Positions 2,132 to 61,305 of a stretch of 64,000 nt of DNA are shown piece after piece. A program made the position numbers and the translations under genes. Below the pieces are notes generated by a model. That model worked only from the letters and a program-made list of their open reading frames with translations. It made no database searches and was not told where the DNA came from. Source of the DNA: Patescibacteria group bacterium. GTDB taxonomy: Bacteria; Patescibacteriota; Patescibacteriia; Patescibacteriales; JAQTRU01. The stretch lies in NCBI GenBank assembly GCA_028711655.1, contig JAQTRU010000001.1, forward strand, positions 6,648-70,647, read 5' to 3'. How positions within the stretch are numbered: position 1 is the stretch's first letter; each line of letters starts with the position of its first letter.

Positions 2132-2529
2132 TTTGTAAAATTTCTAATTTCTCCCGCCACTTTATTATATTCATGGCGGACGGGATCCTCCGCCTCTGGC
2201 GGGGTGATAATTCACCCCGGTAGTAAAAACCTTGTTTCACTGCGGGGCAGACCTAATTTCTAAAAAATGTCTAATTCCTGAATTTCTAATGTCAAAAATG
2301 TTTCTAATTTGGAAATTAGACATTTGGACATTTGAATTTTTACCTGCCCGCTAGCCTACGGCAGCTAGGTAGGCGGGTTAGAAATTAGAAATTGGGTCAA
2401 TTAGGAATTTTTTATATTATCTTGTTATTTTATTATTTTATTATTTTATTATTTCCGCCGCGTTGACTATTCCCCTCTTTTGTTATTTAATACTATTATA
2501 ACATAAATAAAAGCCAGAGGGCAAACAAA

Positions 2530-3986
2530 ATGACAATTGAACAAATAGTAAAAAAAATTAAAGAAAATAATCCCAAAGCGGATACGGACATGCTGAAACT
2601 GGCATATGATTTTGCCATGAAGGCCCATGGCGAACAAAAAAGGAAGACGGGGGAACCATATATCCAGCACTGCCTGCATACAGCCTTTGTTTTGGCGCAA
2701 ATTAAGGCGGATTTAAATACAGTCATCGCCGGCATCCTCCATGATATTCCCGAGGATACCGATTATACTCTGGAGGATATAAAAAACAATTTCGGAGAAG
2801 AAACCGCTTATTTGGTTGAGGGAATCACCAAATTAAGCAAAATAAAATATCGCGGCATTGAAAGATACCGGGAAAGTTTAAGAAAAATGTTCCTATCCAT
2901 GGCAAGCGACTTAAGGATTATTATAATTAAATTTGCTGACCGTCTCCACAACTTAAGGACCTTGGAAGGGCTGCCGCCGGAAAAACGCCTGCGTATCGCC
3001 AAGGAAACCCTGGAAATTTACGCTCCCATTGCCGGACTTCTGGGAATCTGGAGTTTGAAATGGCAGATGGAAGACATTTGTTTTAAGCATCTTTACCCGG
3101 AAGAATATAAAAAAATAGAGTATAAATACGAAGTGGAAAAGAAGGTTGAACATACCCAATATATCCAAAGGATAAAAAATATTTTAAAGAAAAATTTTGA
3201 AGAAGCCGGCATTAAATATAAAATAGAAAGCCGATTTAAACACCTTTACAGTATTTACCAAAAAATGCAGAAAAAAGACAGGCAATTTAATGAAATTTAT
3301 GATGTTTTCGCCCTCCGGGTTATTGTGCCAAACGTTAATGATTGTTATAAAGTCTTGGGAATCATCCATACTCTTTGGAAGCCAAAAGCCAACCGCTTTA
3401 AGGATTATATCGCCTCGCCAAAACCTAATGGCTACAAAAGCCTGCACACCACCGTCTTTGGTCTGGAAGAAAAAGCCATTGAATTTCAAATCAGAACCAA
3501 AGAAATGAATGACGAAGCCCTTTACGGTCTCGCCGCCCATTGGTATTACAAACAAAAAAGGGGCGGCAAAGAGGAAAACCGCTTTATTGGTTCAGAGAAA
3601 TCTTAGATATCCAGCGGGAAGCTGAGGATACGAATGACTTCGTAAAAAAAATAAAATTTGACATCTTCGGCAACAGAATTTTCGTTTTTTCTCCCAAGGG
3701 CGATGTTTTTGAACTTCCGGAAGGATCTACGCCGATTGATTACGCTTACGCTGTCCACACCGAAATCGGCAATAAGGCAACCAGGGCCCTGGTTAACGAT
3801 AAAATAGCCGATTTGGATAAAGAATTAAAAAGCGGGGATCTGGTGGAAATTATCATAGATAAAAACCGCCCGGGACCAAACCGGGCCTGGCTAAAATTTG
3901 TTAAAACCGCCAACGCCCGCAACCGGATAAAACATTATTCCAAGACACCCATGGAAAACTTTAAAAATTTTTTTCCAAAATTTTAG
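2530..3986 (+). pseudogene. rel: RelA/SpoT-family (p)ppGpp synthetase/hydrolase (HD, synthetase, TGS), interrupted by a frameshift in an A6 run (~3554-3559)
   Basis: ORF 2530..3606 has the HD motif HDIPEDT and the synthetase domain. ORF 3540..3986 in another frame continues with a TGS domain (VFSPKGDVFELPEGSTPIDYAYAVHTEIG). The overlap contains the homopolymer caaaaaag. Confidence 0.7.
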
Positions 3987-3992
3987 AATGAC

Positions 3993-4026
3993 AAAAACCC
4001 CGCCCTTCACGAAGGGCGGGGTTTTA
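3993..4026. terminator. Bidirectional rho-independent terminator between convergent rel and yqeY
   Basis: aaaaaCCCCGCCCttcacgaaGGGCGGGGtttt, perfect GC stem flanked by A and T runs. Confidence 0.7.
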
Positions 4027-4037
4027 TTTTATACGAA

Positions 4038-4517
4038 TTATTTTTTGCTTTCAGCTAAAACTTTTTTAACCGCTTCGCTCGCTTTATTGCCATCGGCTTG
4101 GCCTTTAACCCTGGCCATAACCTGCCCCATAATTTTCCCAAAATCATTTTCGCTCGCTTCCTCCAAAGAATTTATGGTTTCTTTGACAATTTTCTCCAAT
4201 TCTTCATCGCTTATCTGGGGCGGCATGTATAATTCCAATATTTCTTCTTCCTTTTTTTCCTTGTCGGCTAAGTCTTGCCGGCCGCCGGCTTTATAGGCCT
4301 CAACTGAATCTTTGCGTTTTTTTATTTCGGATTTTACAACTTCGATAATCTGTTCATCAGCCAATTTTATTTCTTCGCCCTTGCGCAGGGATATTTCTTT
4401 GTTCCGAATAGCGCTAATAAGCATACGCAAAACGGAAACGGCTATCTCGTTTTTTTCCTGCATGGCCATTTTCAGGTCTCCGTTAATTTTTTCCGATAAA
4501 TTTGGCATAAAAATCAC
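4038..4517 (-). CDS. yqeY: GatB/YqeY domain protein
   Basis: 159 aa, Glu/Lys-rich helical protein with a YqeY-like sequence pattern. Confidence 0.6.
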   Translation of the reverse strand: MIFMPNLSEKINGDLKMAMQEKNEIAVSVLRMLISAIRNKEISLRKGEEIKLADEQIIEVVKSEIKKRKDSVEAYKAGGRQDLADKEKKEEEILELYMPPQISDEELEKIVKETINSLEEASENDFGKIMGQVMARVKGQADGNKASEAVKKVLAESKK

Positions 4518-4528
4518 GCTTAGATAAA

Positions 4529-4768
4529 CTATCGCTTTCTCTTGAAATTATCCTCAACCAGTTTTCCTGTTTTTCTCAAATATTCTTTTTCTTTCCTTAA
4601 GCGCAAACTCGTCAAAGCATACTCTTTCTGTTGCCTTTTGTTCTTCTTCGGTTCCCGATGTTGCTTCTGGCGAGCCACATAAAGCCTTCCGCTCTGTTTC
4701 AGGGCCTTATTGAATCTTCTTAAAAAACCCTCAAAACTTTCACCCTTTTTCCTTTTGAATTCAGCCAC
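4529..4768 (-). CDS. rpsU: 30S ribosomal protein S21
   Basis: VAEFKRKKGESFEGFLRRFNKALKQSGRLYVARQKQHREPKKNKRQQK matches S21. GTG start at 4768 with SD GGAGGTG. The annotated ORF extends upstream spuriously. Confidence 0.8.
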   Translation of the reverse strand: MAEFKRKKGESFEGFLRRFNKALKQSGRLYVARQKQHREPKKNKRQQKEYALTSLRLRKEKEYLRKTGKLVEDNFKRKR

Positions 4769-4787
4769 CTTACACCTCCGTTCTAGC

Positions 4788-4808
4788 CCCGCCTTCAAGA
4801 AGGGCGGG
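4788..4808. terminator. Terminator hairpin after hisS; sequence-related to the 3993-4026 hairpin
   Basis: CCCGCCttcaagaaGGGCGGG. Confidence 0.5.
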
Positions 4809-6965: not shown

Positions 6966-8090
6966 TCAAATTTCGGGCCTACGCGGACTATCATAGATAA
7001 ACATCGCGTCTCCATAGCTATAAAACCGGTATTTCCTTTTTATGGCCTCACTATAAGCTTTATCAATATTTTTCTTTCCGGCCAAAGCGCAAACCAGCAT
7101 TAAAAGGGTGGATTTGGGCAGATGAAAATTGGTAATCAGGCCATCAACAATCTTAAATTTATAGCCAGGATAAATGAAAATATCCGTCCAACCGGAATAA
7201 TCGCGTATCGCATAACGCATATCGCATAACGAATTTGAAGTTTGTAATTTATTTGCGATATGCGATTTGCGACTAGCGATATGCGAAAAAATCGTTTCCA
7301 GCGCCCTCGCGCTCGTTGTCCCTACCGCTATCACTCTTCTGCCTTCAGATTTGGCCAAAAAAATTCTAGCGATAGTTTTTTTATCTACTTCCGCCCACTC
7401 CGCATGCATTTTGTGTTTTTTTATATTATTAACCTTAACGGGCGCAAAAGTTCCCAAGCCAACATGAAGAGTCACATATTCTATATGTACGCCTTTTTTC
7501 TCCAATTTCTTTAACAAGGCCGGGGTAAAATGAAAACCGGCGGTCGGGGCGGCTACGGATCCTGTTTTTTTTTCGCTGGCGTAAACCGTCTGATAATTCA
7601 TGTCGTCAGATTTCTGTTTTTTATCTCTTTTTATATAGGGAGGCAGGGGCATCAATCCGATTTTATTTACGATTTTTACAAATTCTTTTTTATTTTTATT
7701 AAATTTTAATTCCCAGGTTCCATTTTGATTATTTTTTATAATTTTAGCTTCCATTTTTTTCTTAAATTCAATTTCTAGACCGACTCTCGCTCCCCGCCCG
7801 CCGATCAAGCATTGCCAAATCGCCGACGAATTTTTTTTCAAAAGAAAAACCTCAATTTTTCCTCCCGTATCTTTTTTCCTTCCAAATAATCTCGCCGGCA
7901 TTACCTTGGAATTATTAAGGACGAGAACATCGCCTGGCCGAAAACAATCAACAATATTATAAAAATGGTCATGTTTTATTTCTCCTGTTTTTTTTGATAA
8001 TAAAAGAAGCCGCGAGCGGTCTCGCGGTTTAACAGGCTTTTGGGCAATTAAATTTTTCGGCAGAAGGTAGTCAAAATCTTTTAACTTCAT
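6966..8090 (-). CDS. queA: S-adenosylmethionine:tRNA ribosyltransferase-isomerase
   Basis: MKLKDFDYLLPKNLIAQKP ... GWTDIFIYPGYKFKIVDGLITNFHLPKSTLLML. Contains an in-frame palindromic insertion (see 7203-7290). Confidence 0.85.
   Translation of the reverse strand: MKLKDFDYLLPKNLIAQKPVKPRDRSRLLLLSKKTGEIKHDHFYNIVDCFRPGDVLVLNNSKVMPARLFGRKKDTGGKIEVFLLKKNSSAIWQCLIGGRGARVGLEIEFKKKMEAKIIKNNQNGTWELKFNKNKKEFVKIVNKIGLMPLPPYIKRDKKQKSDDMNYQTVYASEKKTGSVAAPTAGFHFTPALLKKLEKKGVHIEYVTLHVGLGTFAPVKVNNIKKHKMHAEWAEVDKKTIARIFLAKSEGRRVIAVGTTSARALETIFSHIASRKSHIANKLQTSNSLCDMRYAIRDYSGWTDIFIYPGYKFKIVDGLITNFHLPKSTLLMLVCALAGKKNIDKAYSEAIKRKYRFYSYGDAMFIYDSPRRPEI
7203..7290. repeat. Palindromic array of the cgcata word inside the queA coding sequence (in frame)
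   Basis: cgcgtatcgcataacgcatatcgcataacg-(loop)-gcgatatgcgatttgcgactagcgatatgcg, translated as ...SHIANKLQTSNSLCDMRYAIRD. Confidence 0.7.
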
Positions 8091-8091
8091 A

Positions 8092-8634
8092 TCAAATATG
8101 ATGAGCAACTTTACACTTTTCCACTAACTTAATAATAACATCCCTTACTTGATCCGGATTCGGAACCTCATGGAAAAAAAATCTTTCTTTAGCCCCGGCT
8201 GTTTGCACATAAACATTGCCGTATTTTAAAATAGTCGGGAAAAATCCCTTGGTTTCGCTGGTAACGTCCTGAACCCGGTCTAGTCTCTGTTCAGAAATTG
8301 TCCGGGCGAAAAACCCCTGTTGTTCTATATTAATAATTCTCTCGCTGGTTATTATCCAAATATCCAGATAATAATCAATAAAAGAAAAAAAGAAAAACAC
8401 CCAAAGAAATAGATAATAAAAGCTTACTATTAAAAGAAAAATGGGATGGGAAATCTGCCCATAAAGAATGTCCGGATAAATAGAAGTAACTACCAAATAA
8501 AAAAGTACCAAGGGCAGAACTAAGAGCAAAATAAAAAATAAAATTTTTTTTATAAGAATAAAAACATCCCGCCTTAGCACTTTTATAATTTTTTCATCGG
8601 GAAGTTTTCCCGGCAAACGGTAAAGTAAAAGCAT
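8092..8634 (-). CDS. Membrane protein with bacterial PH (bPH_2/YdbS-like) domain
   Basis: Two N-terminal TM helices, then a PH-like domain (ERIINIEQQGFFARTISEQRLDRVQDV). Confidence 0.55.
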   Translation of the reverse strand: MLLLYRLPGKLPDEKIIKVLRRDVFILIKKILFFILLLVLPLVLFYLVVTSIYPDILYGQISHPIFLLIVSFYYLFLWVFFFFSFIDYYLDIWIITSERIINIEQQGFFARTISEQRLDRVQDVTSETKGFFPTILKYGNVYVQTAGAKERFFFHEVPNPDQVRDVIIKLVEKCKVAHHI

Positions 8635-8641
8635 AGGCTAC

Positions 8642-8896
8642 TTAAAAAGAAAATTCTAAATCTAGCAAGTCCCCAAAAATAGTAACATTCATTTGCCAAT
8701 CAATTTGGCTCAAATATTTATAAGAAAATAAAAGCATAAGAATGGAAATGGCGATATAAATAAAAATCGTGAAAAAAGTGGTAAAATTTAAAAAGCCGTA
8801 TTTAAACATATGGTAAATCGCGATAAAACTAAATATCAGCCAGCCCAAAAGAAAGATAAGATAAATTATTAAAAAAATGTATAAAGGGAAAGTCAT
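8642..8896 (-). CDS. Small multi-TM membrane protein, hypothetical; likely start at MTFPLYIF
   Basis: The ORF N-terminus MKISNFITFNFITFNFITFN is a translation of the upstream tandem repeat. Confidence 0.4.
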   Translation of the reverse strand: MTFPLYIFLIIYLIFLLGWLIFSFIAIYHMFKYGFLNFTTFFTIFIYIAISILMLLFSYKYLSQIDWQMNVTIFGDLLDLEFSF

Positions 8897-26722: not shown

Positions 26723-26989
26723 CGATTTAATCCTGTCGTCCTCGGACGACGGGGCAAGGATAACGAAATTTACCCGGGGCAACCCGGGTCTCAAATAGAA
26801 GTTAAAAGCTTCAACAGGGAAGAAAACCTGTTTAAAAACTTTCTCTTGGATAGTAAACCAAGTAAAAAACTTTAAGAGAGTTTTCAGCCAGAGGCTGATC
26901 CGCCTTTGGCGGAGATCCTGGCCTGCCCGCAAGGGCAGGTTAAAACTGGAGTACTGAAAACTTTCCTTGGATAGTAAACCAAGTAAAAA

Positions 26990-28603
<1,614 letters not shown>

Positions 28604-28718
28604 TCTAGGGAGATATTCGGTGAAAAAAACGAATGTGTCGACCTACTTAAATTTTTATAAAATCTAGGTGGGAAATTGGCGCCTGCTAGCTTTGAAATTT
28701 TGATCATCAAATAAAAAA

Positions 28719-30291: not shown

Positions 30292-30369
30292 GATAGGCCT
30301 CCATGTTAAGAATGAACAATTAAATATACAATGAATGAACAATTCCTTTCCGCATTAGTCCGCATCAGT

Positions 30370-37743: not shown

Positions 37744-37845
37744 CCCTACGAATTACGAATATATACGAATGTACGAATTCCCCAATAAACGCCTTAATTT
37801 AATATTCGTATATTCGTAACGAATTCGTAATTCGTAGAATAAAAA
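37744..37845. repeat. attcgta palindromic element upstream of hup
   Basis: cctacgaattacgaatatatacgaatgtacgaattcc ... tattcgtatattcgtaacgaattcgtaattcgtag. Confidence 0.75.
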
Positions 37846-37846
37846 T

Positions 37847-38131
37847 ATGAATAAGGCAGGATTAATTGAAAAAATAGCCGAAGCCGCGGCCGTAACGAAA
37901 AAACAGGCTGAGGACATGATTGAAACTTTGGTAAAAACCATTGTCTCCGAATTAAAATCCGGGGGCGAGGTGACCATTGCCGGTTTTGGCACGTTTCTGG
38001 CCAGAACCCGCCACGCCCGGGGCGGTGTTAATCCGCAGAAACCGACGGAAAGAATTAAAATCCCTGAAGTAAAAGTGGCAAAATTCAAAACCGGAAAAAA
38101 TTTAAAGGACGCTTTAAAAGGCAAAATATAA
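37847..38131 (+). CDS. hup: HU-family DNA-binding protein
   Basis: MNKAGLIEKIAE ... GFGTFLARTRHARGGVNPQ. Confidence 0.9.
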   Translation: MNKAGLIEKIAEAAAVTKKQAEDMIETLVKTIVSELKSGGEVTIAGFGTFLARTRHARGGVNPQKPTERIKIPEVKVAKFKTGKNLKDALKGKI

Positions 38132-38154
38132 TTTTTTACAGGTTAAAATAAAAA

Positions 38155-38188
38155 AACAACCCGTTTGTTTTAAGGGGTTGTTTTTTAT
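38155..38188 (+). terminator. hup terminator
   Basis: aacaacccgtttgttttaaggggttgtttttt. Confidence 0.7.
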
Positions 38189-38245
38189 TGAAAAAAATAG
38201 GGTTATGCCGCTCTAGACATAACCCTCGAAGATAAATCAAAACTA

Positions 38246-39190
38246 TTAAAGATACAGCTGACGAAAATCTCTTATGATTTGTCTGGCGGTTTCCGAATTC
38301 TTTGGATCAAAAGGAATTTCCAGACAAATTATTTCCATTGTCCGGAGAGCTTCCTTAACCGCCGGAGAAAAATTGGCAAGGTGATCATGGGTGTCAATCA
38401 ATATTCCCTCGGGGGGTATGCCGGAGAAATGGCAAACCGGACTATGCGGCAAGGCAAGATAATCAGCAACGGCCTGATTAATATCTTTCCATTTCTCGGG
38501 GATTGCCATAAAACCCTTTTTTGCTTGGTTAACCATTACAGCCAAATGGGTAAAGTCAATCAGGCATTTCCAGCCCAACCCCAAAGATCCAAATAAATGT
38601 TCCATATCTTCCGGAGTGCCGCCAAACCCCCAGTAGCTGCTCCGGCTCCATGGGCTTGTGTCCTCATCTGGTGGATAAAAAGATTTACCAACGATCGGAG
38701 GAACGTTTTCCAGTAAAATATTATTCCCGGAAAACGCGGCCAGAGAGGAAACAACCCTTGAAAAAGATATATAATCCGCCTTGCTTTCCCCATAGCCAGG
38801 ATGAACTACTATCCCTCTTGCATTATATCCGAGTTCTTGAGTTTCTTTAGCTATCCTTAGCGACCAGCGCAAGGTCTCAAAATTCCAGTTCTCCCAAGTA
38901 TAAAAAGAAGAATGACGACCAAATACGCCGAGCTCATCAAAATTTTCACCGAAGTCAACGCCAATATTTTCCGCCCCGCAATGGATAACCACTTCTTTGC
39001 CCGGCAACCTTGATAAAATTTTCCTTAACCAAGATTTATCATCCGCCAGGCCGGGCGTAAAACAAGGGTGCGCCACTCGCAACTGGATACCCTGGATAAA
39101 ACCGGCTCTAAAAAGCCCTTGCTGGAGAGTAAAATATTCGTCTCCGGAAACAAGATTTTCCCAAAAAAGACCGCCAAAAATTTGAGGCAT
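38246..39190 (-). CDS. Hypothetical protein (possible TIM-barrel/sugar-phosphate isomerase-like), higher GC than neighbours
   Basis: 314-aa ORF with HCGAEN, VHPGYGE and THDHL motifs. Confidence 0.4.
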   Translation of the reverse strand: MPQIFGGLFWENLVSGDEYFTLQQGLFRAGFIQGIQLRVAHPCFTPGLADDKSWLRKILSRLPGKEVVIHCGAENIGVDFGENFDELGVFGRHSSFYTWENWNFETLRWSLRIAKETQELGYNARGIVVHPGYGESKADYISFSRVVSSLAAFSGNNILLENVPPIVGKSFYPPDEDTSPWSRSSYWGFGGTPEDMEHLFGSLGLGWKCLIDFTHLAVMVNQAKKGFMAIPEKWKDINQAVADYLALPHSPVCHFSGIPPEGILIDTHDHLANFSPAVKEALRTMEIICLEIPFDPKNSETARQIIRDFRQLYL

Positions 39191-39420
39191 GCCAGACCCA
39201 CCTTTCTGATTTTGTCTTTATTTGTTGATATTTTTAAAGGACCATTAAAATTATATCACTCTATCATATTTTCACTATTCAGTCAATCTAAAAATAATTC
39301 CAAAGGATAGGGGGGTTGTTTTTTATTGAAAAATATGCTAATATAATCTTGAACTCCCCTGGGAGTTCTTTAAATTAGCGCTCGTAGCTTCCGCCTTCGT
39401 CCTTCGATAAACTCAGGACT

Positions 39421-39450
39421 GCGGCGGGTAAGCGACTGGATAGAGCGCGT
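39421..39450 (+). other. tRNA-like 5' fragment (acceptor/D-arm-like), pseudo-tRNA
   Basis: gcggcgggtaagcgactggatagagcgcgtg shares ggatagagcgc with the tRNA-Arg D-arm. Confidence 0.3.
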
Positions 39451-39465
39451 GTTTTCCCTGCCTGC

Positions 39466-39487
39466 CGGCAGGCAGGGGACCAATTAT
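39466..39487. repeat. REP-like palindrome R1 copy
   Basis: cCCTGCCTGCCGGCAGGCAGGg. Confidence 0.85.
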
Positions 39488-39554
39488 TTTTTTGCCGTTT
39501 TGCTCCTGTGGTGAAATGGATATCACGCTTGGCGGAGTTTATCCCGCTTAAAGC

Positions 39555-39627
39555 GTACCCGTAGCTCAATGGATAGAGCGCTTGGCTTCGGACCAAGAGG
39601 TTGTGGGTTCGACTCCTGCCGGGTACG
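39555..39627 (+). tRNA. tRNA-Arg (anticodon TCG)
   Basis: Acceptor GTACCCG/CGGGTAC, D-stem GCTC/GAGC, anticodon loop CTTCGGA, T-loop TTCGACT. T-stem has two G-U pairs. Confidence 0.7.
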
Positions 39628-39654
39628 CTTTGTGCGGGAGACCAAGAATTTCGG

Positions 39655-39712
39655 GCCTGCCCCGCACCGCAAAGGGTGCGGGGTTCGAATCCTGACGGGA
39701 GCACACCTGGTA
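39655..39712 (+). other. tRNA-like 3' fragment (T-arm GGTTCGAATCC), pseudo-tRNA
   Basis: gcaccgcaaagggtgcggggttcgaatcctgacgggagca; no complete cloverleaf could be folded. Confidence 0.3.
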
Positions 39713-39745
39713 AAACAAAAATTCTAAGAATTACTTTTTCGACTC

Positions 39746-39765
39746 CCTGCCTACCGGCAGGCAGG
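39746..39765. repeat. REP-like palindrome R1 copy (variant)
   Basis: CCTGCCTACCGGCAGGCAGG, followed by ctgccgggcgcgctttgcgcgggagact, a near-repeat of the tRNA-Arg 3' end plus flank. Confidence 0.8.
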
Positions 39766-39818
39766 CTGCCGGGCGCGCTTTGCGCGGGAGACTGGGAACC
39801 AAAAATAAATCAATAGCT

Positions 39819-40085
39819 ATGGATTATCATCTTATTATTTATTTTTTAGCTGGCGTTCTGCAAGACTTCTTACTAACCCTTAATTGGCGATTTATAGCTA
39901 AAGAGAAAGCTATTTCTGCGGCCGTTCTTTCTTTCGCCGTAACTATAGTAACAATGCTTGTGCTTTATAATATTTTAACCCAACTTGATAAGCAACGGAG
40001 TCTAATCGCAATTATAGTTTATGCTTTAGGCATAAGCGCGGGCACAATTTTGGGAATAAAAACAAAAATTACTTCTAAAAATTAA
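39819..40085 (+). CDS. Small 2-3-TM membrane protein, hypothetical
   Basis: MDYHLIIYFLAGVLQDFLLTLNW... Confidence 0.4.
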   Translation: MDYHLIIYFLAGVLQDFLLTLNWRFIAKEKAISAAVLSFAVTIVTMLVLYNILTQLDKQRSLIAIIVYALGISAGTILGIKTKITSKN

Positions 40086-40147
40086 AAATTGTCGCAATAG
40101 CGACACCTAAATTTTACATTTTAAATTTTACATTTTAATTTATTTAT

Positions 40148-40221
40148 GGCTGGGTAGCTCAGTTGGTTAGAGCGTAGCACTCATAACGCTAAGGTCGAGG
40201 GTCCGATCCCCTCCCCAGCCA
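40148..40221 (+). tRNA. tRNA-Met (anticodon CAT; could be initiator, elongator or Ile2)
   Basis: GGCTGGG/CCCAGCC acceptor, anticodon loop CTCATAA, T-arm GAGGG-TCCGATC-CCCTC (C55 unusual). Confidence 0.65.
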
Positions 40222-40278
40222 CAAAGAATTTCAGATTTATGATTTTAGATTTTAGATTTAAATCTGAAATCGGCAATC

Positions 40279-40298
40279 CCTGCCTGCCGGCAGGCAGG
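40279..40298. repeat. REP-like palindrome R1 copy
   Basis: CCTGCCTGCCGGCAGGCAGG. Confidence 0.85.
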
Positions 40299-40317
40299 TT
40301 AAATCAAAAATCAAGGG

Positions 40318-40390
40318 GCACCGTTAGCTCAATTGGTAGAGCAGATCCCTCTTAAGGATAAGGTTGCAGGTTCGATTCCTGCACGGTGCA
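40318..40390 (+). tRNA. tRNA-Lys (anticodon CTT)
   Basis: GCACCGT/ACGGTGC acceptor, anticodon loop CTCTTAA, T-arm GCAGG-TTCGATT-CCTGC. Confidence 0.8.
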
Positions 40391-40397
40391 CAAAAAA

Positions 40398-40437
40398 ATC
40401 GTAGAGGTGAAAAGTTTTTTACCTCTACGATTTTTTT
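40398..40437 (+). terminator. Terminator after the tRNA cluster
   Basis: atcgtagaggtgaaaagttttttacctctacgattttttt. Confidence 0.75.
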
Positions 40438-40452
40438 GTACTATAATCCTAT

Positions 40453-41793
40453 TTAAAGATTCTTTTCCAAAAATTCTCTTACCTCTTTTTCTTTTTCCTC
40501 GGCGATTTCTTTCGTTTCCCCCTCAATCGTAATCCTAAGCAATGGCTCGGTATTGGACGGCCGAATATTAATCCACCAATCTTTATATTCAACGGTTAAG
40601 CCGTCCAATTCATCCTGCGCCCCGTCTTTAAATCTTTCCCGAGCGGCCGCTATTATTTCTTCGGTTTTTTCAGTTTTCATATTGATTTCGTCCAAACGGT
40701 AATAAGGATTAAGCCCGCTTACAATTTCTGATAATTTTTTTTCCTCTTTGGAAATCAGGGCCAGGAGGATAACAAAAGCAATAAAGCCGGAGTCGGCGTA
40801 ATAATTGTCCCGAAAACAGTAATGCGCCGAAACTTCTCCCCCCATAATTCCGCCATTGTCTTTCATGGCTTTGGCCACATTGACAAACCCGACGGCGGCG
40901 CGCAAAGGCCGGCCGCCCCAGTCTTTTACTTTTTCCCGAACCGCCCGGCTGCAAATCGCGTTATAGGCGATACCGGCGCCCGGTTCTTTTTTTAAAAAAT
41001 ATTTTGCTAAAATCAACAGGGTGGTGTCAGCTTGAATAAATTCTCCTTTTTCATCAGTAAAAAACAAACGATCGGTATCCCCATCCATTATTATGCCAAA
41101 ATTCGCATTTTCTTCCCTTACTTTTTCCGAAATCTGTACCTTTGATTCGGGCAGCAAAGGATTGGAAGGGTGGGCGGGGAAATTTCCATCAAGCTCAAAA
41201 TTCAAAGGAATTAGCCGGCAGGGCAATTTGGCAAAAAGCAAGGGCATAACTTTTCCGGCCATGCCATTGCCGGCATCAACCACAATTTTAAAAGGTTTGA
41301 TTTCCCCCATATCGGCGAAAGATAAAACATGCTTTAAATAATCGAAAATTACATCTCTCTCTTTAATTTCACCCCTTGGCTCTTTGGAAGCAAAATTTTT
41401 GCCGCGCAAAAATTCATATAATTGGTTTCCCCGTATCATCTCTATGCCGTTATCTCTCACCACCATCTTAAAGCCGTTATATTCTTTCGGGTTATGCGAA
41501 GCCGTCACCATTATTCCGCCGTCATATTTATAATGGCCGACAGAAAAATAAACCGCATCAATCGGCACCTGGCCCAAATCGTCAACATTAACCCCCTGGT
41601 CAGCCAAACCGGCGGCAAATCTTTCCCCGAGACTGTCAGAGCCGATTCTCATATCCCGGCCGATTGCCACCTTTTTCACGCCGGTTAAGTTGGCATAGGC
41701 CTGACCGGCTAAAAAAGCGGTGGCTTCATTCAGCTCATCCGGATAAATTCCCCGGATATCGTAAGATTTGAATATTTTTGGATTTAGAGTCAT
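40453..41793 (-). CDS. glmM: Phosphohexomutase (phosphoglucosamine mutase / phosphomannomutase family)
   Basis: Active-site TASHNPKEYNGFK; metal-binding DGDTDR. Confidence 0.8.
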   Translation of the reverse strand: MTLNPKIFKSYDIRGIYPDELNEATAFLAGQAYANLTGVKKVAIGRDMRIGSDSLGERFAAGLADQGVNVDDLGQVPIDAVYFSVGHYKYDGGIMVTASHNPKEYNGFKMVVRDNGIEMIRGNQLYEFLRGKNFASKEPRGEIKERDVIFDYLKHVLSFADMGEIKPFKIVVDAGNGMAGKVMPLLFAKLPCRLIPLNFELDGNFPAHPSNPLLPESKVQISEKVREENANFGIIMDGDTDRLFFTDEKGEFIQADTTLLILAKYFLKKEPGAGIAYNAICSRAVREKVKDWGGRPLRAAVGFVNVAKAMKDNGGIMGGEVSAHYCFRDNYYADSGFIAFVILLALISKEEKKLSEIVSGLNPYYRLDEINMKTEKTEEIIAAARERFKDGAQDELDGLTVEYKDWWINIRPSNTEPLLRITIEGETKEIAEEKEKEVREFLEKNL

Positions 41794-41797
41794 AAAT

Positions 41798-42522
41798 TTA
41801 TTTTTTAGCAATTTTCCAAAAAGTCCGGAAATATTGCAGATAACCTAAAGCCACTTCTTTATTAATTATTTCAATTAAAATAAGCGGAGTCGTATATATC
41901 TGGATAAAAACCCTGTCTTTAAAAATTTCCGTATTGGCTGGGACTAAATACTTTTCCGGCAGATACTTAGTCGTCCGGGCAAAACTGCTTTGATGCTCTT
42001 CTATCTCTTTTCTCTGCCAGGAAAAAGCGATCATACTTAAAACAATTTTTTTTTCTTTCAAAAAATTCTCATAGCTTAAAAATAAATTTCCCATGGCTTC
42101 TACCCATTTATCGCCCCCGGCGCCGATTGTATAAACTTTATCTCCCCTTTTTAAATCTTTCATAACTCGGCGGTACGCCGTCTGCCAGCCTTCTTTTCCT
42201 TCATAAATATTAACCTGCGGGGCTTTAAAACGGCTTTTAGTCCTTATTTCGCAAGCGACCTTTACCGCCAGATCAAATTGGTCCCTAGCCTGATTACTTA
42301 AAACTTCGGGGTTGCCTACTTTAAAATATTTCTTTCCTTTTTTTATCGTTTCCTTAACCAAATCTCTTTTTTTAAGATTATCAAGGCTCTCATAAACAAT
42401 ATTCCGGTGTTTGCCAGTTTTTTTATTATTTCTCCCGAAGGCGTTTCCCCGCTTTCAAGCAAAGCGCAAAAAACCAAAGATTCATTCGGGGATAAACCTA
42501 ATTTTATCAGTTCTTCCCGCAT
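41798..42522 (-). pseudogene. TrmB-family winged-helix transcriptional regulator, frameshifted at an A7 (T7 on plus) run 42418-42424
   Basis: The frame from ATG ~42522 gives MREELIKLGLSPNESLVFCALLESGETPSGEIIKK. The wHTH continues (TGKHRNIVYESLDNLKKRDLVKE...) only in the frame of ORF 41798..42361; one extra A would restore it. Confidence 0.6.
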
Positions 42523-42585
42523 ATGGATAATTTTACCCTATTTTTAGTAAAAAAACAAGTTTAAATAACTATCATCATAAAAGTA

Positions 42586-42614
42586 TTGACATATTATATA
42601 AACTATGCTATATT
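42586..42614 (+). promoter_or_regulatory. Promoter of the 42661 gene
   Basis: TTGACA-17 nt-TATATT. Confidence 0.55.
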
Positions 42615-42660
42615 AATATATTAAAAATGTTCCTTTTATTTCAACCCTTTATCAGGAGGT

Positions 42661-43260
42661 ATGGCCATGAAAAAGCTGCTGATCACCCTCGTTCTGTCTG
42701 CCCTGCTTTTCGCCAGCTCGGCTTCAGGCCAACATCTGTTTGATACCCGCTTTTTGCTCGGAAATTCAGCTTCGCTGAAATTTGATCATTTTCACGACTG
42801 GCAGAATTGGACCAGCTTTGTGGAAATTTCGCCGACCGGACAATACGCTCTGCTTGAGTTCGGGCCGAAATTCAACCTGCCGATCGGCGCCTTAAAACTG
42901 CGAGCCGGCTTCAACATAACTTCAACTTCAGCCGGGGCTGAATATATCGACCAGCAGGCTCTAGTATTTCTCGGCCACTGGGGTAACCTGACCCTGCTCT
43001 CCGTTAATGAAATAGAAGATATAACCAGAGGCGATCCTTTCCATTGGTCAGCTGACCAATATTATTATGAGCATGATCTAAAATACGGCTGGCTGGGGAT
43101 TCATGCTGAAGCGGTCTGGTGGGAGAAAAATTACAAACCCTTTACCGGACCGACTTTTTCCTTCCCGGTCGGCCAAGGCCATTTGGTTGTCTGGCCGGGC
43201 TGGCAAATAGGCGAAGGAAAAAGAACTCTGGCGGTTGAATACAATCTTTTCTTTAAATGA
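42661..43260 (+). CDS. Secreted beta-rich protein (outer-membrane beta-barrel-like), GC-rich codon usage
   Basis: MKKLLITLVLSALLFASSASGQ signal peptide, alternating hydrophobic strands, aromatic C-terminus; CTG/CTC/GCC-rich unlike flanking genes. Confidence 0.5.
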   Translation: MAMKKLLITLVLSALLFASSASGQHLFDTRFLLGNSASLKFDHFHDWQNWTSFVEISPTGQYALLEFGPKFNLPIGALKLRAGFNITSTSAGAEYIDQQALVFLGHWGNLTLLSVNEIEDITRGDPFHWSADQYYYEHDLKYGWLGIHAEAVWWEKNYKPFTGPTFSFPVGQGHLVVWPGWQIGEGKRTLAVEYNLFFK

Positions 43261-43324
43261 TTTATAAGGAAAATACAAAGCGGACTTCTTAAGACAAGAA
43301 ATCCGCTTTTTTATATCAAGCCCT

Positions 43325-44494
43325 CTAAGCTTTTCGGAAAGCCAGCCAAATTCCTCCAAGCCCCCACCAAAGCGCGACTAAAGCTAAAATCCAGCCGACA
43401 AAAGGGATGGAAAAAATAAACCAGCAGATGACAATGCCGACAATCATGGCCCAAATTAAAGAATCTTTTTTATTTTTCCAAAATTTCTCCAAAAGATTTC
43501 GCCCAATCATAATACCGGTTAAAATTTTGGCCGCAAAAAGAGCAATTGCCCAAACGCCGAGCAAAAGCAAGGCCAACGGAATACCAATAAAGGTAAATAA
43601 CAATAGAATTGAAATAATTGGAGTTAAAAACATGATTACCGCGCCCCAACCAATAGAAGCCCCAACCTTCTCAAGCATTCTGTCGGTCAGTTCCACAATC
43701 TGTTTGCGCCATAGGCTGATTAAAACCAAACCAATTACCAGGGCGGCAAAAATTGAATATAATCTTCCCCAAAACCAACCGACAAACCTGAATTCCCCTC
43801 CCTTTTCCGCTTTTGGCAAATTATGTTTAATCTCGCCAACCACAAAAGATTTTTCAGAAATATCCGCCTCGTTACTTCCGGTATAAGTTAAATTCCTCCC
43901 GATTTTAGCATTATCGGCAATAATCAAAAGTTCATTTTTGTCGTGATAGCTAATTCCTTTATTTTCCGCGCGTATTTTATCTCTAAGCTTTATTCTTACA
44001 TCCCTGCCTATTTCTCCGGCAATGGTAACTTTAGGACTGGCGCCATATAAATCCTGGCCGACTTTCCCTCTCGCTTCCATTGTGGCTCCGGCAAAAAGCA
44101 TGCTCCAGCCCACCTCCGCATTTTTGTCCAAAATAATAGAAGCGCCAAAAGCATTAACGTTGCGGGCAATCTTACCGCCCAAATTAATAGAATTTCCCGC
44201 CACTCTTAAATTCCCGCCTATTTCGCCCGAGATATTGATTGACTGACCGGCGCAGATAACATCGCCCTCTACTTTCCCGTTGATATTGATTGACTGACCG
44301 GCGCAGATAACATCGCCCTTAATAGTACCGTCAATTGTAATATTGGTCGCAACCGAATATAAACTTCCTTCTATGGTTTCATCTTCCGCAATATAAACTG
44401 AATCGCCGGTTTTAATTGAAAAAGCTTTTACGGCCAAAGGCGAAACCAAAAAGAAAATAAGAGAAAAAATAATAATTAATCTTGTTTTTGTCAT
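43325..44494 (-). CDS. Signal peptide, beta-helix repeat (bactofilin/DUF4097-like) domain and C-terminal polytopic membrane domain
   Basis: Repeats GDVICAGQSININGKVE x2, GEIGGNLRVAGNSINLGGKI... then ~6 TM helices. Confidence 0.5.
   Translation of the reverse strand: MTKTRLIIIFSLIFFLVSPLAVKAFSIKTGDSVYIAEDETIEGSLYSVATNITIDGTIKGDVICAGQSININGKVEGDVICAGQSINISGEIGGNLRVAGNSINLGGKIARNVNAFGASIILDKNAEVGWSMLFAGATMEARGKVGQDLYGASPKVTIAGEIGRDVRIKLRDKIRAENKGISYHDKNELLIIADNAKIGRNLTYTGSNEADISEKSFVVGEIKHNLPKAEKGGEFRFVGWFWGRLYSIFAALVIGLVLISLWRKQIVELTDRMLEKVGASIGWGAVIMFLTPIISILLLFTFIGIPLALLLLGVWAIALFAAKILTGIMIGRNLLEKFWKNKKDSLIWAMIVGIVICWFIFSIPFVGWILALVALWWGLGGIWLAFRKA
44230..44318. repeat. Recent 51-bp tandem duplication inside the beta-helix CDS
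   Basis: gatattgattgactgaccggcgcagataacatcgccct occurs twice, 51 nt apart. Confidence 0.8.
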
Positions 44495-48189: not shown

Positions 48190-48470
48190 GCAAACAACAA
48201 ATTTGTTTCTGTCATTCCCGCGAAAGCGGGAATCCAGCCTGCCTGCCGGTAGGCAGGAATTAGTCCGCAGGAAGTTCGGTTTGTTAAAATTGTGATAAAA
48301 TAAATGTCCTTACCTCTTAACCCTAGATCCTCTGGTCACCGGCCAGCTCCCCCGCCAAGCTTCGCATAGCGGGGCGTGGCGCTAGCGGGGCAGGCAAGCC
48401 CGAAGATGACAAGAGATGAACGGAAGGGAAAAAGCCACAATGACAAATAAGGGGTCTTTCGGCCTTCTTT
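48190..48470 (+). ncRNA. GC-rich non-coding island (candidate sRNA or structured element) containing an R1 REP copy and ending in a T-run
   Basis: gtcattcccgcgaaagcgggaatc hairpin; R1 at 48238-48257; repeated tagcggggc; ends aaggggtctttcggccttcttttttt immediately before the glyA promoter. Confidence 0.3.
48238..48257. repeat. REP-like palindrome R1 copy (variant)
   Basis: CCTGCCTGCCGGTAGGCAGG. Confidence 0.8.
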
Positions 48471-52181: not shown

Positions 52182-52240
52182 CCACGGACTTATGCGGACT
52201 GACGCGGACTCAAGCGGAAATTAAAATAAAAAAGCCCGGC

Positions 52241-58970: not shown

Positions 58971-59032
58971 TAAGTTTTTTCAGAAAACAAAAAGCAGCCC
59001 TTAATAGCCATAGGCTGCTTTTTTTAATTTTT

Positions 59033-59329: not shown

Positions 59330-59331
59330 AA

Positions 59332-59391: not shown

Positions 59392-59519
59392 TTATGAGCG
59401 GGTAATCCCGCAAAGTTCGCTATCGCTCACTACGGGACGGGCGGGAATTGAAAAGAATTCTTCAAAAAATTCTGAAATCTAAAATCTGAAATCTAAAATC
59501 TGAAATTAACAGGGAGCGG

Positions 59520-59592
59520 GTAGGGGGAATCGAACCCCCATCTTCAGCTTGGAAGGCTAACATAATAAACCATTATACGATACCCGCAGAAA
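59520..59592 (-). tRNA. tRNA-Gly (anticodon TCC)
   Basis: rc: GCGGGTA...TTAGC-CTTCCAA-GCTGA...GGGGG-TTCGATT-CCCCC-TACCCGC-T. Confidence 0.75.
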
Positions 59593-59633
59593 TCAATTTT
59601 CAATTTTAAATTTTCAATTTTAAATTACCTAAA

Positions 59634-60458
59634 CTATCCAATCTTTTTATCTTTTTTAATCTTATAGACTAAAAGAACAAAAGTCAATAAGATGATAATC
59701 AAGCTGGCAATCTGGGGAAATCTTAAATTCCAGATAACCGGGGTTTCGTCTATCCTGATAAATTCTAAACTGAAACGCAAAACAGAATACGTTATTAGAT
59801 AAAAAATAAAAAATAAAAAATAAAAAAAAATTTTAAACTGCCCTTTTTTTATAACCCAAACATGGAAAGAAATTAAAATTAGAAAAATTAAAAAATTGCC
59901 GATTGATTCATACAAAAATGTCGGGTGAAAAAAATCCGAGGAAATATATTCAAGCGGCCGCCCCATAATATCAATCGGAATGCCCCAGTCTAAATTAGTC
60001 GGCTTGCCAAAAAGCTCCCTATTAAAATAATTACCCCACCGGCCAATGGCCTGCGCCAAAGCCAGCCCCGGCGCTATCACGGCGGCCAAAAGCCAAAAAT
60101 TTAAATTGCGCTTTCGGGCGAAAAACCAGATTACAAATAAACCGGCAATAATCGCCCCGTGGATTGCCAGCCCACCCTGCCAGACCTTAAAAATATCCAA
60201 AGGATATTGCCAGTAATAAGGCAACTCCAAAAAAATATGATAAATTCGGGCGCCGATTATCCCCCCGAGAATCAGCCAAAAAGCCAAATCAACAATAGTT
60301 TCTTTTTTTAGGCCGTAATAGGAAGAAATCTTTAAGGCCGTAGCTATAGCGGCCAAAGACCCCAAAACAATAAAAAAACCATACCAATAAATATGGATAG
60401 GGCCGAAAGAAACTAAAATCGGATCAGGATTGAAGGTATGAAAAAAATTCATGTTCAA
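59634..60458 (-). CDS. lgt: Prolipoprotein diacylglyceryl transferase
   Basis: GGIIGARIYHIF ... RWGNYFNRELFGKPT. Confidence 0.85.
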   Translation of the reverse strand: MNMNFFHTFNPDPILVSFGPIHIYWYGFFIVLGSLAAIATALKISSYYGLKKETIVDLAFWLILGGIIGARIYHIFLELPYYWQYPLDIFKVWQGGLAIHGAIIAGLFVIWFFARKRNLNFWLLAAVIAPGLALAQAIGRWGNYFNRELFGKPTNLDWGIPIDIMGRPLEYISSDFFHPTFLYESIGNFLIFLILISFHVWVIKKGQFKIFFYFLFFIFYLITYSVLRFSLEFIRIDETPVIWNLRFPQIASLIIILLTFVLLVYKIKKDKKIG

Positions 60459-60529
60459 GACGTCAATTTATTTTTAAACCTTTAGATGAACCATTGATCC
60501 GAATTCTACTGTGCTTATCTTCACGAACT

Positions 60530-60625
60530 TTGAATTAATCCGAATGCCACGAATTAGTATTCGGAGCATTCGGATTATGGCAGGAAGATTTAAGTCCATA
60601 GGCAGAATTCGGATTAAAGGATTAT
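60530..60625. repeat. attcgga/gaatgc word palindromic array (same family as 11215-11290)
   Basis: tccgaatgccacgaattagtattcggagcattcggattatgg ... ggcagaattcggattaaagg. Confidence 0.7.
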
Positions 60626-60726
60626 CTAGGGGTTTAGAGCCGAAAAAATTTCTTCTACTTAGTATTATATAATAAAAAACCCAAATGAAAAAGCCGGAGA
60701 GTATTTTTTCCCCGGCTTTTTTGTGT

Positions 60727-60963
60727 TTATTGAAAAAATTTTTCTTCTTTGCTCCGATCGAAATCAGTAAATGCCGCCCAGTAAAAAACCAGGGCGCCCA
60801 CACACATCAGAGCTAAATACTGGACGTTAGCCCATTGCTGCTGCGGGTAAGGAAAGACCGGGGCATTAACCACTTTCAAAAAACAAAAAATAGTTATCGC
60901 AAGACCGAAAATGGAAACAGATATTCTTGCGACCATTCTCTTTGTGAGTGTTTTCTCCGCCAT
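60727..60963 (-). CDS. Small 2-TM membrane protein (start at MAEKTLTKR)
   Basis: Hydrophobic helices; downstream terminator aaaaagccggagagtattttttccccggcttttttg. Confidence 0.4.
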   Translation of the reverse strand: MAEKTLTKRMVARISVSIFGLAITIFCFLKVVNAPVFPYPQQQWANVQYLALMCVGALVFYWAAFTDFDRSKEEKFFQ

Positions 60964-61108
60964 TGCATCCTCCTTTGGCTTTTGGAAAAAACTACTCACC
61001 CCCATGAGATATTTATATCATATCATATTTATCAAAATATGTCAATATAAGAAAAAAAGCCCGAATATTAAATAAAATTCAGGCTTTTTAATTTTTTCTT
61101 TTGACTTG

Positions 61109-61198
61109 TTAGCCACGGCTGCAAATTAACAAAAAAGCTACAACGGTCGCCAAAATAAGCGCCGCTTCCGGCCAATGTCTCTTAAAAAATTCTTTCAT
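61109..61198 (-). CDS. Candidate 29-aa single-TM peptide, not in the ORF track
   Basis: SD GAGGAG 6 nt upstream; MKEFFKRHWPEAALILATVVAFLLICSRG. Confidence 0.3.
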   Translation of the reverse strand: MKEFFKRHWPEAALILATVVAFLLICSRG

Positions 61199-61283
61199 CG
61201 CGCACTCCTCTTTTTTAAGGTTACATTGCCAAGATACCATTCTTAATTCTTAAATCTTAATTCCCCTACGGTGGGGATAGAGA

Positions 61284-61305
61284 CCTGCCTGCCGCGGCAG
61301 GCAGG
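61284..61305. repeat. REP-like palindrome R1 copy (extended variant)
   Basis: CCTGCCTGCCGCGGCAGGCAGG. Confidence 0.8.

Follow-up and report, generated by a model that had tools for sequence, protein, structure and literature searches.

In a 64,000-nucleotide stretch of a Patescibacteria group bacterium genome (contig JAQTRU010000001.1, positions 6,648 to 70,647; this whole stretch is the window below), a 20-base palindrome, CCTGCCTGCCGGCAGGCAGG, recurs in the vicinity of tRNA genes. We asked what this palindrome, here called PAL, is and why it gathers there. A first-pass annotation had placed it among the repetitive extragenic palindromes (REPs) that form bacterial interspersed mosaic elements (BIMEs). 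Our analysis favors a different answer, to which we assign a probability of roughly 60%. PAL is probably a conserved cis element of widespread selfish cassettes that dwell in tRNA genes and encode a GIY-YIG (UPF0213/SLX1-like) protein, and the window would hold five copies without the open reading frame (ORF).

The repeat itself is real, since PAL found no match in 100 dinucleotide-preserving shuffles of the window. At least six copies had been claimed; there are five, of which two are exact, two carry one mismatch and one is 22 nucleotides (nt) long. Copy A, which is exact, lies at 39457-39476, about 10 nt away from the position first given for it (39466-39487), within a dead 5' tRNA-Arg copy that it interrupts in the anticodon loop (TTC|GGA). 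The other four had been placed correctly. Copy B (39746-39765, G8A) lies between CGACTC and CTGCCGGG, at the 3' junction of T-loop and T-stem in a dead 3' tRNA-Arg copy. Copy C (40279-40298, exact) lies in the spacer between tRNA-Met and tRNA-Lys, 19 nt 5' of tRNA-Lys and beside heptamer repeats. Copy D (48238-48257) is intergenic, upstream of glyA, and adjoins a second hairpin (tcccgcgaaagcggga); its single change, C13T, is the G8A variant of copy B read on the opposite strand. Copy E (61284-61305) is the 22-nt form, CCTGCCTGCCGCGGCAGGCAGG, with CG added at the center, and lies in a dead 3' copy of tRNA-Leu on the minus strand. Its flanks, GAGTC on one side and TCTCTATCCCCACC on the other, place it at the T-loop/T-stem 3' junction of the tRNA-Leu remnant, so copies B and E occupy the same structural position in tRNA-Arg and tRNA-Leu. 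All five copies are outside intact genes, and the concentration at tRNA genes that had been noticed earlier is borne out, with four of the five within about 110 nt of tRNA-Arg, tRNA-Met/Lys or tRNA-Leu. As DNA, the PAL hairpin has a folding energy of -8 to -10 kcal/mol. The window, which belongs to a contig of a metagenome-assembled genome, contains one 16S rRNA gene and five tRNA genes at about 41% G+C, and this is also about the value for the genome that had been described as AT-rich. A supposed longer variant at 2343-2377 (cctgcccgctagcctacggcagctaggtaggcggg) turned out to be a different GC-rich hairpin, longer, of the CCTGCCCGC...GCGGG type and with heptamer repeats on its flanks; its DNA fold is no better than that of shuffles (z = -0.6), and hairpins resembling it occur in tRNA stubs of relatives.

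How did PAL come to lie in dead tRNA copies? Comparison loci from other genomes are designated by L numbers, and insertion gaps were read from pairwise alignments made with a long-gap aligner. Copies A, B and E are precise insertions of 20 or 22 nt, with no target duplication, inside dead partial tRNA copies, and these tRNA-Arg and tRNA-Leu fragments adjoin intact replacement tRNAs. The tRNA-Arg locus (plus strand) is nested. It begins with what remains, now dead, of the 5' portion of the ancestral tRNA-Arg(TCG), from position 1 to about position 43, at 39378-39483, delimited by alignment with L156 and L160; this stub carries a 43-nt hairpin in its D-loop (39390-39432) and copy A in its anticodon loop, and copy A is a single 20-nt gap relative to the intact orthologous tRNA-Arg of L156 and L160. 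Then comes the 5' half of a second type of tRNA-Arg, split at the anticodon loop (39502-39532; compared by eye with L040 3829-3901), which is intact in the more distant relative L040. The sole intact tRNA-Arg(TCG) of the locus, bracketed by atcccgc...gcgggag, lies at 39555-39628, within the two dead copies. It is followed by the 3' half of the L040-type gene (39642-39703), with a 28-nt hairpin (39656-39683) that starts CCTGCC at the T-stem/T-loop junction, and finally by the dead 3' end of the ancestral gene (39737-39778) with its conserved 3' flank, together 39737-39795. This last segment contains copy B, which is one 20-nt gap relative to the intact tRNA-Arg 3' end at 39606-39655; the flank downstream of it is orthologous to L156.

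The tRNA-Leu locus (minus strand) is built in a similar way. An intact tRNA-Leu(TAG) at 61394-61478, whose two flanks at 61352-61365 and 61492-61505 form a perfect inverted repeat of 14 bp (CCCCGCCTCATTTT), stands between a dead 3' part of the ancestral tRNA-Leu that runs from the anticodon arm to the CCA-proximal end and contains copy E (61270-61351) and a dead 5' part with a 29-nt hairpin inserted in its D-loop (61509-61561). Copy E is one 22-nt gap relative to the intact tRNA-Leu of L163. The acceptor stem of the intact window tRNA-Leu is foreign (GGGCAAG versus GGGGATA in relatives), and foreign acceptor stems in both the intact tRNA-Arg and the intact tRNA-Leu point to an apparent replacement of tRNA sequence. 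At copy C, the tRNA-Met/Lys spacer measures 95 nt in the window versus 26 nt, without PAL, in L040. The association with tRNA loci, which the first-pass annotation had tied to processing or insertion hotspots, is meaningful; a processing hairpin found no support.

Close relatives bear on the age of these insertions. They were fetched through neighboring genes, L156-L160 by phosphomannomutase and L161-L164 by lgt, and their DNA is about 76-96% identical to the window over aligned stretches. We found no PAL in the fetched stretches of L156-L160 (window region 37001-44000) or of L161-L162 (57001-64000), and L163 and L164 have it solely at sites other than those of the window. At the PAL-bearing tRNA loci of the window, relatives with 80-90% identity have plain tRNA genes free of PAL. 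The tRNA-Arg(TCG) gene is single and intact in L156 and L160, as is tRNA-Leu(TAG) in L162 and L163, while L164 has a different replacement tRNA-Leu preceded by a 24-nt stub of the old one. A comparison of L164 with L162 shows a clean 20-nt gain of PAL outside tRNA DNA, and L040 has one PAL upstream of its RNase Y gene. Judged by these alignments, the PAL insertions of the window are recent. Because PAL is absent at the orthologous sites of close relatives, it is not needed for tRNA expression.

This bears on whether PAL is a functional hairpin of the host, be it an intrinsic terminator, a hairpin that processes or stabilizes the RNA of tRNA operons, or a palindromic operator. Copies do lie in transcribed tRNA regions; in the cassettes described below, PAL is part of the leader that precedes the ORF and comes after what appears to be the native tRNA promoter (TAnnTTTG-like motifs upstream of stubs); and compensatory changes together with strand asymmetry would suit an RNA hairpin. 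However, the window copies are located in dead gene fragments and are missing from the orthologous sites of close relatives, and a T-run follows copy A alone of the five, beginning 10 nt downstream (T-rich to about 39493). Moreover, nucleotide identity across phyla, in loci of 29-67% G+C, exceeds any structural need, and Rfam gave no match; on the window it reported only the tRNAs, the 16S rRNA gene and a weak T-box, with no family over PAL. We regard a host hairpin as improbable, and plain terminators or processing hairpins, which the first-pass annotation had kept as a fallback, fail on the same grounds: dead tRNA fragments, one T-run in five and absence in close relatives.

A classical REP/BIME family, moved by a REP-associated tyrosine transposase (RAYT; a Y1 HUH transposase) encoded elsewhere in the genome, would likewise give a short GC-rich palindrome, extragenic in the window, with several copies and a stable hairpin. 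Yet the window contains no BIME-like pairs of PAL, tandem or inverted, and no inverted doublets; the nearest neighbors are 289 and 533 nt apart and the intervening sequence is unrelated. Among about 50 scanned window ORFs there was no RAYT (IS200/IS605-type Y1, PF01797), no other transposase, no integrase and no GIY-YIG gene. In addition, REPs are species-specific, whereas the same 20-mer occurs over many phyla and in viral contigs, and the gene that recurs next to it in other genomes is a GIY-YIG gene, not a RAYT. We give this explanation very little credence. What survives of it is a repeated, mobile-looking extragenic palindrome and the expectation of a dedicated partner gene; such a gene was found in other genomes, and it encodes a minimal GIY-YIG nuclease instead of a Y1 transposase.

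How far does PAL extend beyond this organism? We scanned a one-genome-per-species collection, in which counts are lower bounds and taxonomic labels are those of the records. Among the matches listed, more than 120 genome contigs, spread over many phyla, carry the exact 20-mer. They come from a large number of Patescibacteria lineages and, among others, from Bacteroidota, Omnitrophota, Planctomycetota, Gamma- and Deltaproteobacteria, Bdellovibrionales, Thermodesulfovibrionales and Chloroflexi. Cultured Bacteroidota that have it include Flavivirga and, as carriers of solo PAL, Winogradskyella echinorum KCTC 22026, Longitalea luteola SYSU D00799 and Flagellimonas yonaguniensis 334s03. PAL is also present in 35 viral contigs, with 3-6 copies in some. 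Two control palindromes of equal half-composition, one of which retained the tetranucleotide repeat, had 0 and 0 viral matches versus 35 for PAL, which rules out chance or low complexity as its origin. An assembly or adapter artefact is ruled out by the mutated copies, by continuous flanks and by the presence of PAL in isolate genomes and a complete chromosome.

The sequences that flank PAL in these other genomes are unrelated to one another, and PAL often lies within tRNA-like sequence there; with self-matches removed, the enrichment of tRNA-like flanks is modest (about 11-14 sites versus 2-10 for random sites). It also sits at the tip of other hairpins, with stems of at least 6 bp at 16 of 165 sites versus 3.4 in permuted controls, and between direct repeats at 21 of 165 sites versus 3.5 in controls. 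PAL is nested in PAL in four loci (L018, L021, L028 and L042). In low-GC loci, 12 of 104 occurrences are in frame in long ORFs, gatB and rpsF for example, and are mostly read as LPAGRQ; the site in GatB, when compared with solved structures, falls in a variable loop, so that comparison is ambiguous.

Two viral contigs show PAL inside a tRNA gene. In L145 (2239-2330), ARAGORN still recognizes a phage tRNA-Met that has PAL in its variable loop, where the palindrome takes the place of a long variable arm. The related contig L122 (about 8570-8650) has the same tRNA-Met insertion, and part of the T-arm is deleted.

Stems and direct repeats at the flanks raise the question of whether an enzyme is needed at all. 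PAL could be a by-product of template switching at hairpin-forming DNA such as tRNA genes, in which case the stubs would be neutral and the link to GIY-YIG incidental. The window is indeed rich in other hairpin, heptamer and decamer insertions (in the stubs, the 16S V1 helix, the T-box leader and queA). Template switching leaves unexplained, however, why one exact 20-mer occurs in unrelated genomes from which control palindromes are absent, and why about 68% of the loci with one particular ORF have PAL at a set distance from it. We see only the slimmest chance that it accounts for PAL.

That ORF came to light in L163. In this relative the tRNA-Gly locus has acquired a block in which a 5' stub of tRNA-Gly (from position 1 to about 43) with two PAL-type palindromes is followed by a 78-amino-acid (aa) GIY-YIG ORF and a complete tRNA-Gly. 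The block is polymorphic: tRNA-Gly is plain in the window and in L161, L162 and L164. A profile search with the L163 protein over 155 loci selected for PAL found a small GIY-YIG ORF in 11 of them. The order of stub with PAL, ORF and tRNA was read directly in L037, L106, L118, L152 and L163 (tRNA-Lys, -Gly and -Leu), and PAL lies within about 150 nt of a GIY-YIG stretch in L010, L039 and L060. In L039 (tRNA-Val) the stub has a different hairpin and PAL is in a 3' copy downstream of the tRNA, whereas L010 and L060 have PAL beside the GIY-YIG stretch with no tRNA. Some of the ORFs are decaying, being frameshifted in L106 and reduced to fragments in L039 and L010.

Two of these loci have features of their own. 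In the viral contig L152, a group I intron (86 bits) lies at 1182-1416, about 365 nt downstream of the PAL/GIY-YIG cassette, whose ORF ends near 816; ARAGORN called no tRNA on L152. In L060 (about 3861-4150), PAL lies 13 codons upstream of the GIY-YIG domain, all in frame in a 714-codon ORF, the upstream part of which we take, by impression, to be an HsdS-type restriction-modification specificity subunit. Here a protein gene seems to have received the cassette.

Does the association hold when the loci are chosen without regard to PAL? For the reverse test, 80 metagenome loci were picked by back-translated GIY-YIG peptide patterns and tblastn, independently of PAL; 79 are distinct at 90% identity, and their G+C content is 29-67%. 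PAL with at most two mismatches ends 11-79 nt upstream of the ORF in 52 of the 76 loci that have at least 100 nt upstream, and in 38 it is exact. About eight further loci have shortened or lengthened PAL-like hairpins upstream of the ORF. The density of PAL in the 160 nt upstream of the ORF is 24 times that elsewhere in the loci. On the other side, 49 of 72 loci have a tRNA whose start is 0-38 nt past the end of the ORF, with a few more added by Rfam; most are tRNA-Leu (all five isoacceptors), and tRNA-Arg, -Asn, -Asp, -Met and -Gly also occur.

PAL sits within a 5' stub of the very tRNA located after the ORF. The stub begins at tRNA position 1, is interrupted by PAL after 14-15 or 22-24 (the D-loop edges), and ends at about 27-29 or 37-42. 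By eye, several stubs are preceded by sequences resembling TAnnTTTG, the Bacteroidota promoter motif; if they are promoters, the ORF would be placed between a tRNA promoter and its tRNA. In a tandem layout the unit of stub, PAL and ORF is repeated. In a mirrored layout an intact tRNA is followed by the ORF and then by a 3' tRNA copy with PAL at the anticodon or T-loop junction; in one example, GTTCGAGTC|PAL|TCTCC, PAL occupies precisely the position that it has in window copies B and E. Whatever the layout, PAL is confined to the redundant tRNA copy, at or next to stem-loop junctions, and is never in the functional copy. When stub and neighboring tRNA were compared without gaps, about a third of the loci showed several mismatches. 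Rfam gave no match over the stub-PAL regions of 20 cassette loci. Two roles for PAL were considered and set aside. A mark on the cleavage site that gives immunity was not adopted, since the adjacent intact tRNA has the same sequence, and PAL halves as transposon ends around the ORF were rejected because the ORF has the complete palindrome on one side only.

What is the protein? It is a bare GIY-YIG catalytic domain of about 78-90 aa (PF01541, E = 1e-14), and the nearest solved structures by sequence are UPF0213 1zg2 and 1ywl, then the structure-specific nuclease SLX1, then the I-TevI catalytic domain. To our knowledge, no role has been assigned to the bacterial SLX1/UPF0213 GIY-YIG lineage. 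A superfamily survey from 2006 treated the bacterial proteins as minimal SLX1-lineage domains, mostly vertically inherited, and asked whether other GIY-YIG members act as molecular parasites; for the bacterial SLX1-lineage proteins it is silent on tRNA genes or a palindrome (PMC1564403). On the ORF-sense strand, pair 5-12 of PAL shows two different compensatory changes and PAL variants keep the hairpin; support from covariation is weaker for the full palindrome than for pair 5-12. In the literature that we searched, nothing matched the PAL 20-mer and no bacterial paper joined GIY-YIG, tRNA genes and a palindrome; the matches were confined to organelles and phages, the nearest case being SegB of phage T4. 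Within that literature, the cassette and its palindrome are apparently undescribed.

Together these observations suggest how the cassettes may work. The common layout would comprise a tRNA promoter, a 5' tRNA stub with PAL inside, the ORF and an intact tRNA. The duplication pattern, an intact gene accompanied by a partial copy of its 5' or 3' side and by tandem arrays, is what would be expected from a single (Campbell-type) crossover of a tRNA gene with a small unit made up of a partial tRNA and the ORF. The mismatches between stub and tRNA in about a third of loci and the foreign acceptor stems of the window fit a unit that imports donor tRNA sequence. We infer that the GIY-YIG protein recognizes PAL in a sequence-specific manner, probably as a hairpin or cruciform. 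Recognition by this protein is the simplest reading because PAL is conserved at the nucleotide level across hosts and the GIY-YIG protein is the sole protein that travels with it; the hairpin or cruciform form is suggested by the SLX1-like ancestry, the junction positions and the compensatory changes at pair 5-12. The nuclease would then cut at stem-loop junctions, leading to invasion and duplication of tRNA genes and, in trans, to the spread of solo PAL. PAL itself may serve as a cleavage or recognition site, as a barrier that divides the repeat and so keeps recombination from removing the ORF, or as a 5' RNA hairpin.

Where, then, do the solo copies of the window come from? They may be relics of cassettes that lost the ORF, or they may have been placed in trans. 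The A, B and E loci are relics or products of the same process, we propose, because PAL lies there in redundant tRNA fragments beside an intact, partly foreign replacement. Such a cassette-related origin would account for the clustering of PAL at tRNA genes in the window. One could go further and hold that every solo PAL is a former complete cassette minus its deleted ORF and that PAL is never mobile alone. The window offers fitting cases: at copy A, 70 nt separate a PAL-bearing 5' stub from the intact tRNA-Arg that follows, which is a cassette minus its ORF, and at copies B and E a PAL-bearing 3' copy follows the intact tRNA at a distance of 42-110 nt, which is the mirrored cassette minus its ORF. 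The decaying ORFs of L106, L039 and L010 also speak for it. However, the gap in B and E relative to intact sequence is exactly the palindrome, the gain in L164 relative to L162 added nothing else to non-tRNA DNA, and PAL is found in frame in long ORFs, inside PAL and in the loops of other hairpins. That all solo copies are relics is therefore unlikely in our estimation. A trans route would be needed at least sometimes, because clean 20-nt gains occur outside tRNA DNA, in ORFs and inside PALs.

Carried to its end, the cassette reading becomes a two-part system, which we put forward tentatively and judge somewhat short of even odds. Here a structure-specific nuclease of about 80 aa would recognize PAL as a hairpin or cruciform, invade tRNA genes of any phylum and scatter bare PAL in trans. 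Invasion would leave one intact tRNA and one PAL-tagged stub, and bare PAL would enter hairpin junctions, RNA genes and coding sequence.

Several observations weigh against PAL as a cassette element. The window contains no GIY-YIG ORF or remnant of one, and the link to a nuclease comes from other genomes. Most solo PALs elsewhere are distant from a tRNA (about 12% lie within 300 nt of one) or from a GIY-YIG gene, and a PAL-like hairpin is lacking in about 11 of the 76 GIY-YIG loci. The intact tRNA beside the ORF keeps the D-arm sequence of the stub, so immunity is not accounted for by simply supposing that PAL destroys the homing site. The covariation was read from 10 distinct sequences. Finally, the 78-aa GIY-YIG protein, which we propose would bind or cut PAL, has no separate DNA-binding domain.

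How does the cassette compare with known systems? Nunvar et al. reportedly linked REP elements with RAYT transposases in 2010. The relation of REP elements and REPINs (REP doublets forming hairpins) to RAYTs was also treated by Bertels and Rainey in 2011 (PMC3116915). Like these, PAL is a dispersed short GC-rich palindrome with a nuclease-type gene flanked by copies, and mobilization in trans is plausible. Unlike them, PAL has a GIY-YIG partner where REPs have an HUH Y1 protein, occurs as single units where REPs form doublets, and is identical across phyla where REPs are species-specific; moreover, its gene lies in tRNA duplications, and PAL is also found in coding sequence.

The T4 protein SegB is a free-standing GIY-YIG homing endonuclease in a tRNA gene cluster (PMC2330249). 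The PAL cassette resembles it in that the ORF is small, free-standing, beside tRNA genes and present or absent among close relatives, with nearby tRNA sequence apparently replaced. Seg proteins, however, have a DNA-binding domain, cause no target duplication and have no conserved palindrome, whereas the cassette protein is a catalytic domain only, of the SLX1/UPF0213 lineage, and its target tRNA is partly duplicated with a 20-bp palindrome in the redundant copy. Integrase-mediated, Campbell-type elements that sit at tRNA genes with a partial tRNA copy are said to have been reviewed by Williams in 2002. They share with the cassette one intact tRNA and a leftover partial copy, with junctions in anticodon or T-loop regions; the cassette differs in having no integrase, a length of about 0.3 kb, often a 5' duplication from position 1, and a palindrome in the leftover copy.

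Among palindromes with no transposase known are the small dispersed repeats (SDRs) of Nostocaceae, which Elhai et al. reportedly described in 2008 as very small mobile repeats among heptamer short tandemly repeated repetitive (STRR) sequences. SDRs are reported only in Nostocaceae (PMC5861425). They resemble PAL, by description only, as palindromes of about 20-27 nt that insert precisely without target duplication, nest, and are embedded in heptamer repeats; PAL correspondingly shows precise insertion relative to empty sites, nested copies, and heptamer repeats at copies C and E and at many other loci. The difference is that PAL occurs in many phyla and viral contigs and has a candidate partner gene. 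Yeast mitochondrial GC clusters and Rickettsia palindromic elements are mobile GC-rich palindromes as well. Like PAL, they spread in AT-richer genomes, are tolerated in RNA genes and are found in frame in proteins, but they are longer (30-150 nt), each restricted to a single lineage or organelle, and are not known to have a nuclease gene as partner.

The window and its relatives contain further rearrangements and repeats near tRNA genes. In comparison with L156-L160, the block from tRNA-Arg to tRNA-Lys (39310-40440) is turned around with respect to its neighbors, the phosphomannomutase and HU genes. The window tRNA-Met (40148-40222) has the T-loop TCCGATC, with C at the near-universal U55, as have L156 and L160; that of L040 is the canonical TTCGAGC. 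Nested tRNA-Met genes occur in L156 (5872-6176), L160 (5551-5782) and L015 (about 4015-4225). In these an outer tRNA-Met(CAT) is split at the anticodon by about 120-160 nt with a second, complete tRNA(CAT) between the arms of an inverted repeat, which in L156 and L160 is CCCCGTCACAAAT. The junction motifs ACT|TTCACCC and GGGCAAG|TAAC are identical in L015, a distant Patescibacteria locus. The acceptor stems of the outer tRNA-Met differ between the two lineages while complementarity is kept, and the outer type is intact in the window (40148-40222) and in L040.

At many intergenic sites, the spacers near tRNA genes and PAL are filled with short tandem repeats that have a period of 7, in some cases of 8 or 10, for example at 40111-40141, 40228-40261, 59467-59506, 59593-59626 and 61239-61263. 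Similar heptamers flank PAL in unrelated genomes and in phage contigs (L121 10600-10670) and resemble the cyanobacterial STRR sequences. A second cross-phylum hairpin family, gtcattc-stem-loop-stem-gaatcc, is represented in the window at 48217-48237 (gtcattcccgcgaaagcgggaatcc), adjoining copy D, and in L010, L091 and L116; its stems vary among genomes with complementarity kept, and in L091 PAL lies in its loop.

Comparable insertions occur elsewhere in the window. About 50 nt of the 16S leader and the first 16S bases are duplicated (26834-26883 and 26956-27005), and the upstream copy is broken by two GC hairpins (26887-26910 and 26922-26939), a partial copy with hairpins as at the tRNA genes. 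The second of these is a PAL-like 18-mer, CCTGCCCGCAAGGGCAGG, which lies within the duplicated, interrupted copy of the leader and 16S 5' end and is a closer relative of PAL than the hairpin at 2343-2377. The 16S gene (26991-28604) measures 1614 nt versus 1533 nt for the model, and its V1 helix (27080-27155) is lengthened into a long hairpin by the decamer repeats GCGGACTAAT (2.5 units) and TCCGTATAAG (3.4 units), a family that recurs at 30349-30382, 52185-52218 and 61669-61713. A T-box leader (30429-30628, minus strand; 41.7 bits, below the Rfam gathering score), upstream of a class I Trp/Tyr-tRNA synthetase gene (28809-29804), has an insertion of about 44 nt with a ctcgacaagctcagggcgac hairpin that is related to the 43-nt insertion at 39390-39432. 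In queA (6966-8108, minus strand), a heptamer inverted repeat, ATAACGC/TGCGATA with about five units each, lies at 7197-7286 within the reading frame, and the Pfam model covers 322 positions over 363 residues, which suggests an in-frame repeat insertion.

The GIY-YIG clade that accompanies PAL shows the hallmarks of a selfish element: it has tRNA genes as its fixed habitat and a constant cis sequence, is present or absent among close relatives, amplifies in tandem and has spread across phyla. Its recognition explains a set of annotation problems, namely tRNA genes that are nested or appear as pseudo-tRNA fragments in Patescibacteria, Bacteroidota and further phyla, spurious LPAGRQ peptides, and 7-aa insertions in proteins. 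A 20-bp site recognized by a nuclease of 80 aa would also be of interest as a tool. If the two-part system is true, PAL would be among the smallest known nonautonomous mobile elements, and the GIY-YIG protein would be a testable candidate enzyme, the first such, for the tiny mobile palindromes of cyanobacteria and organelles.

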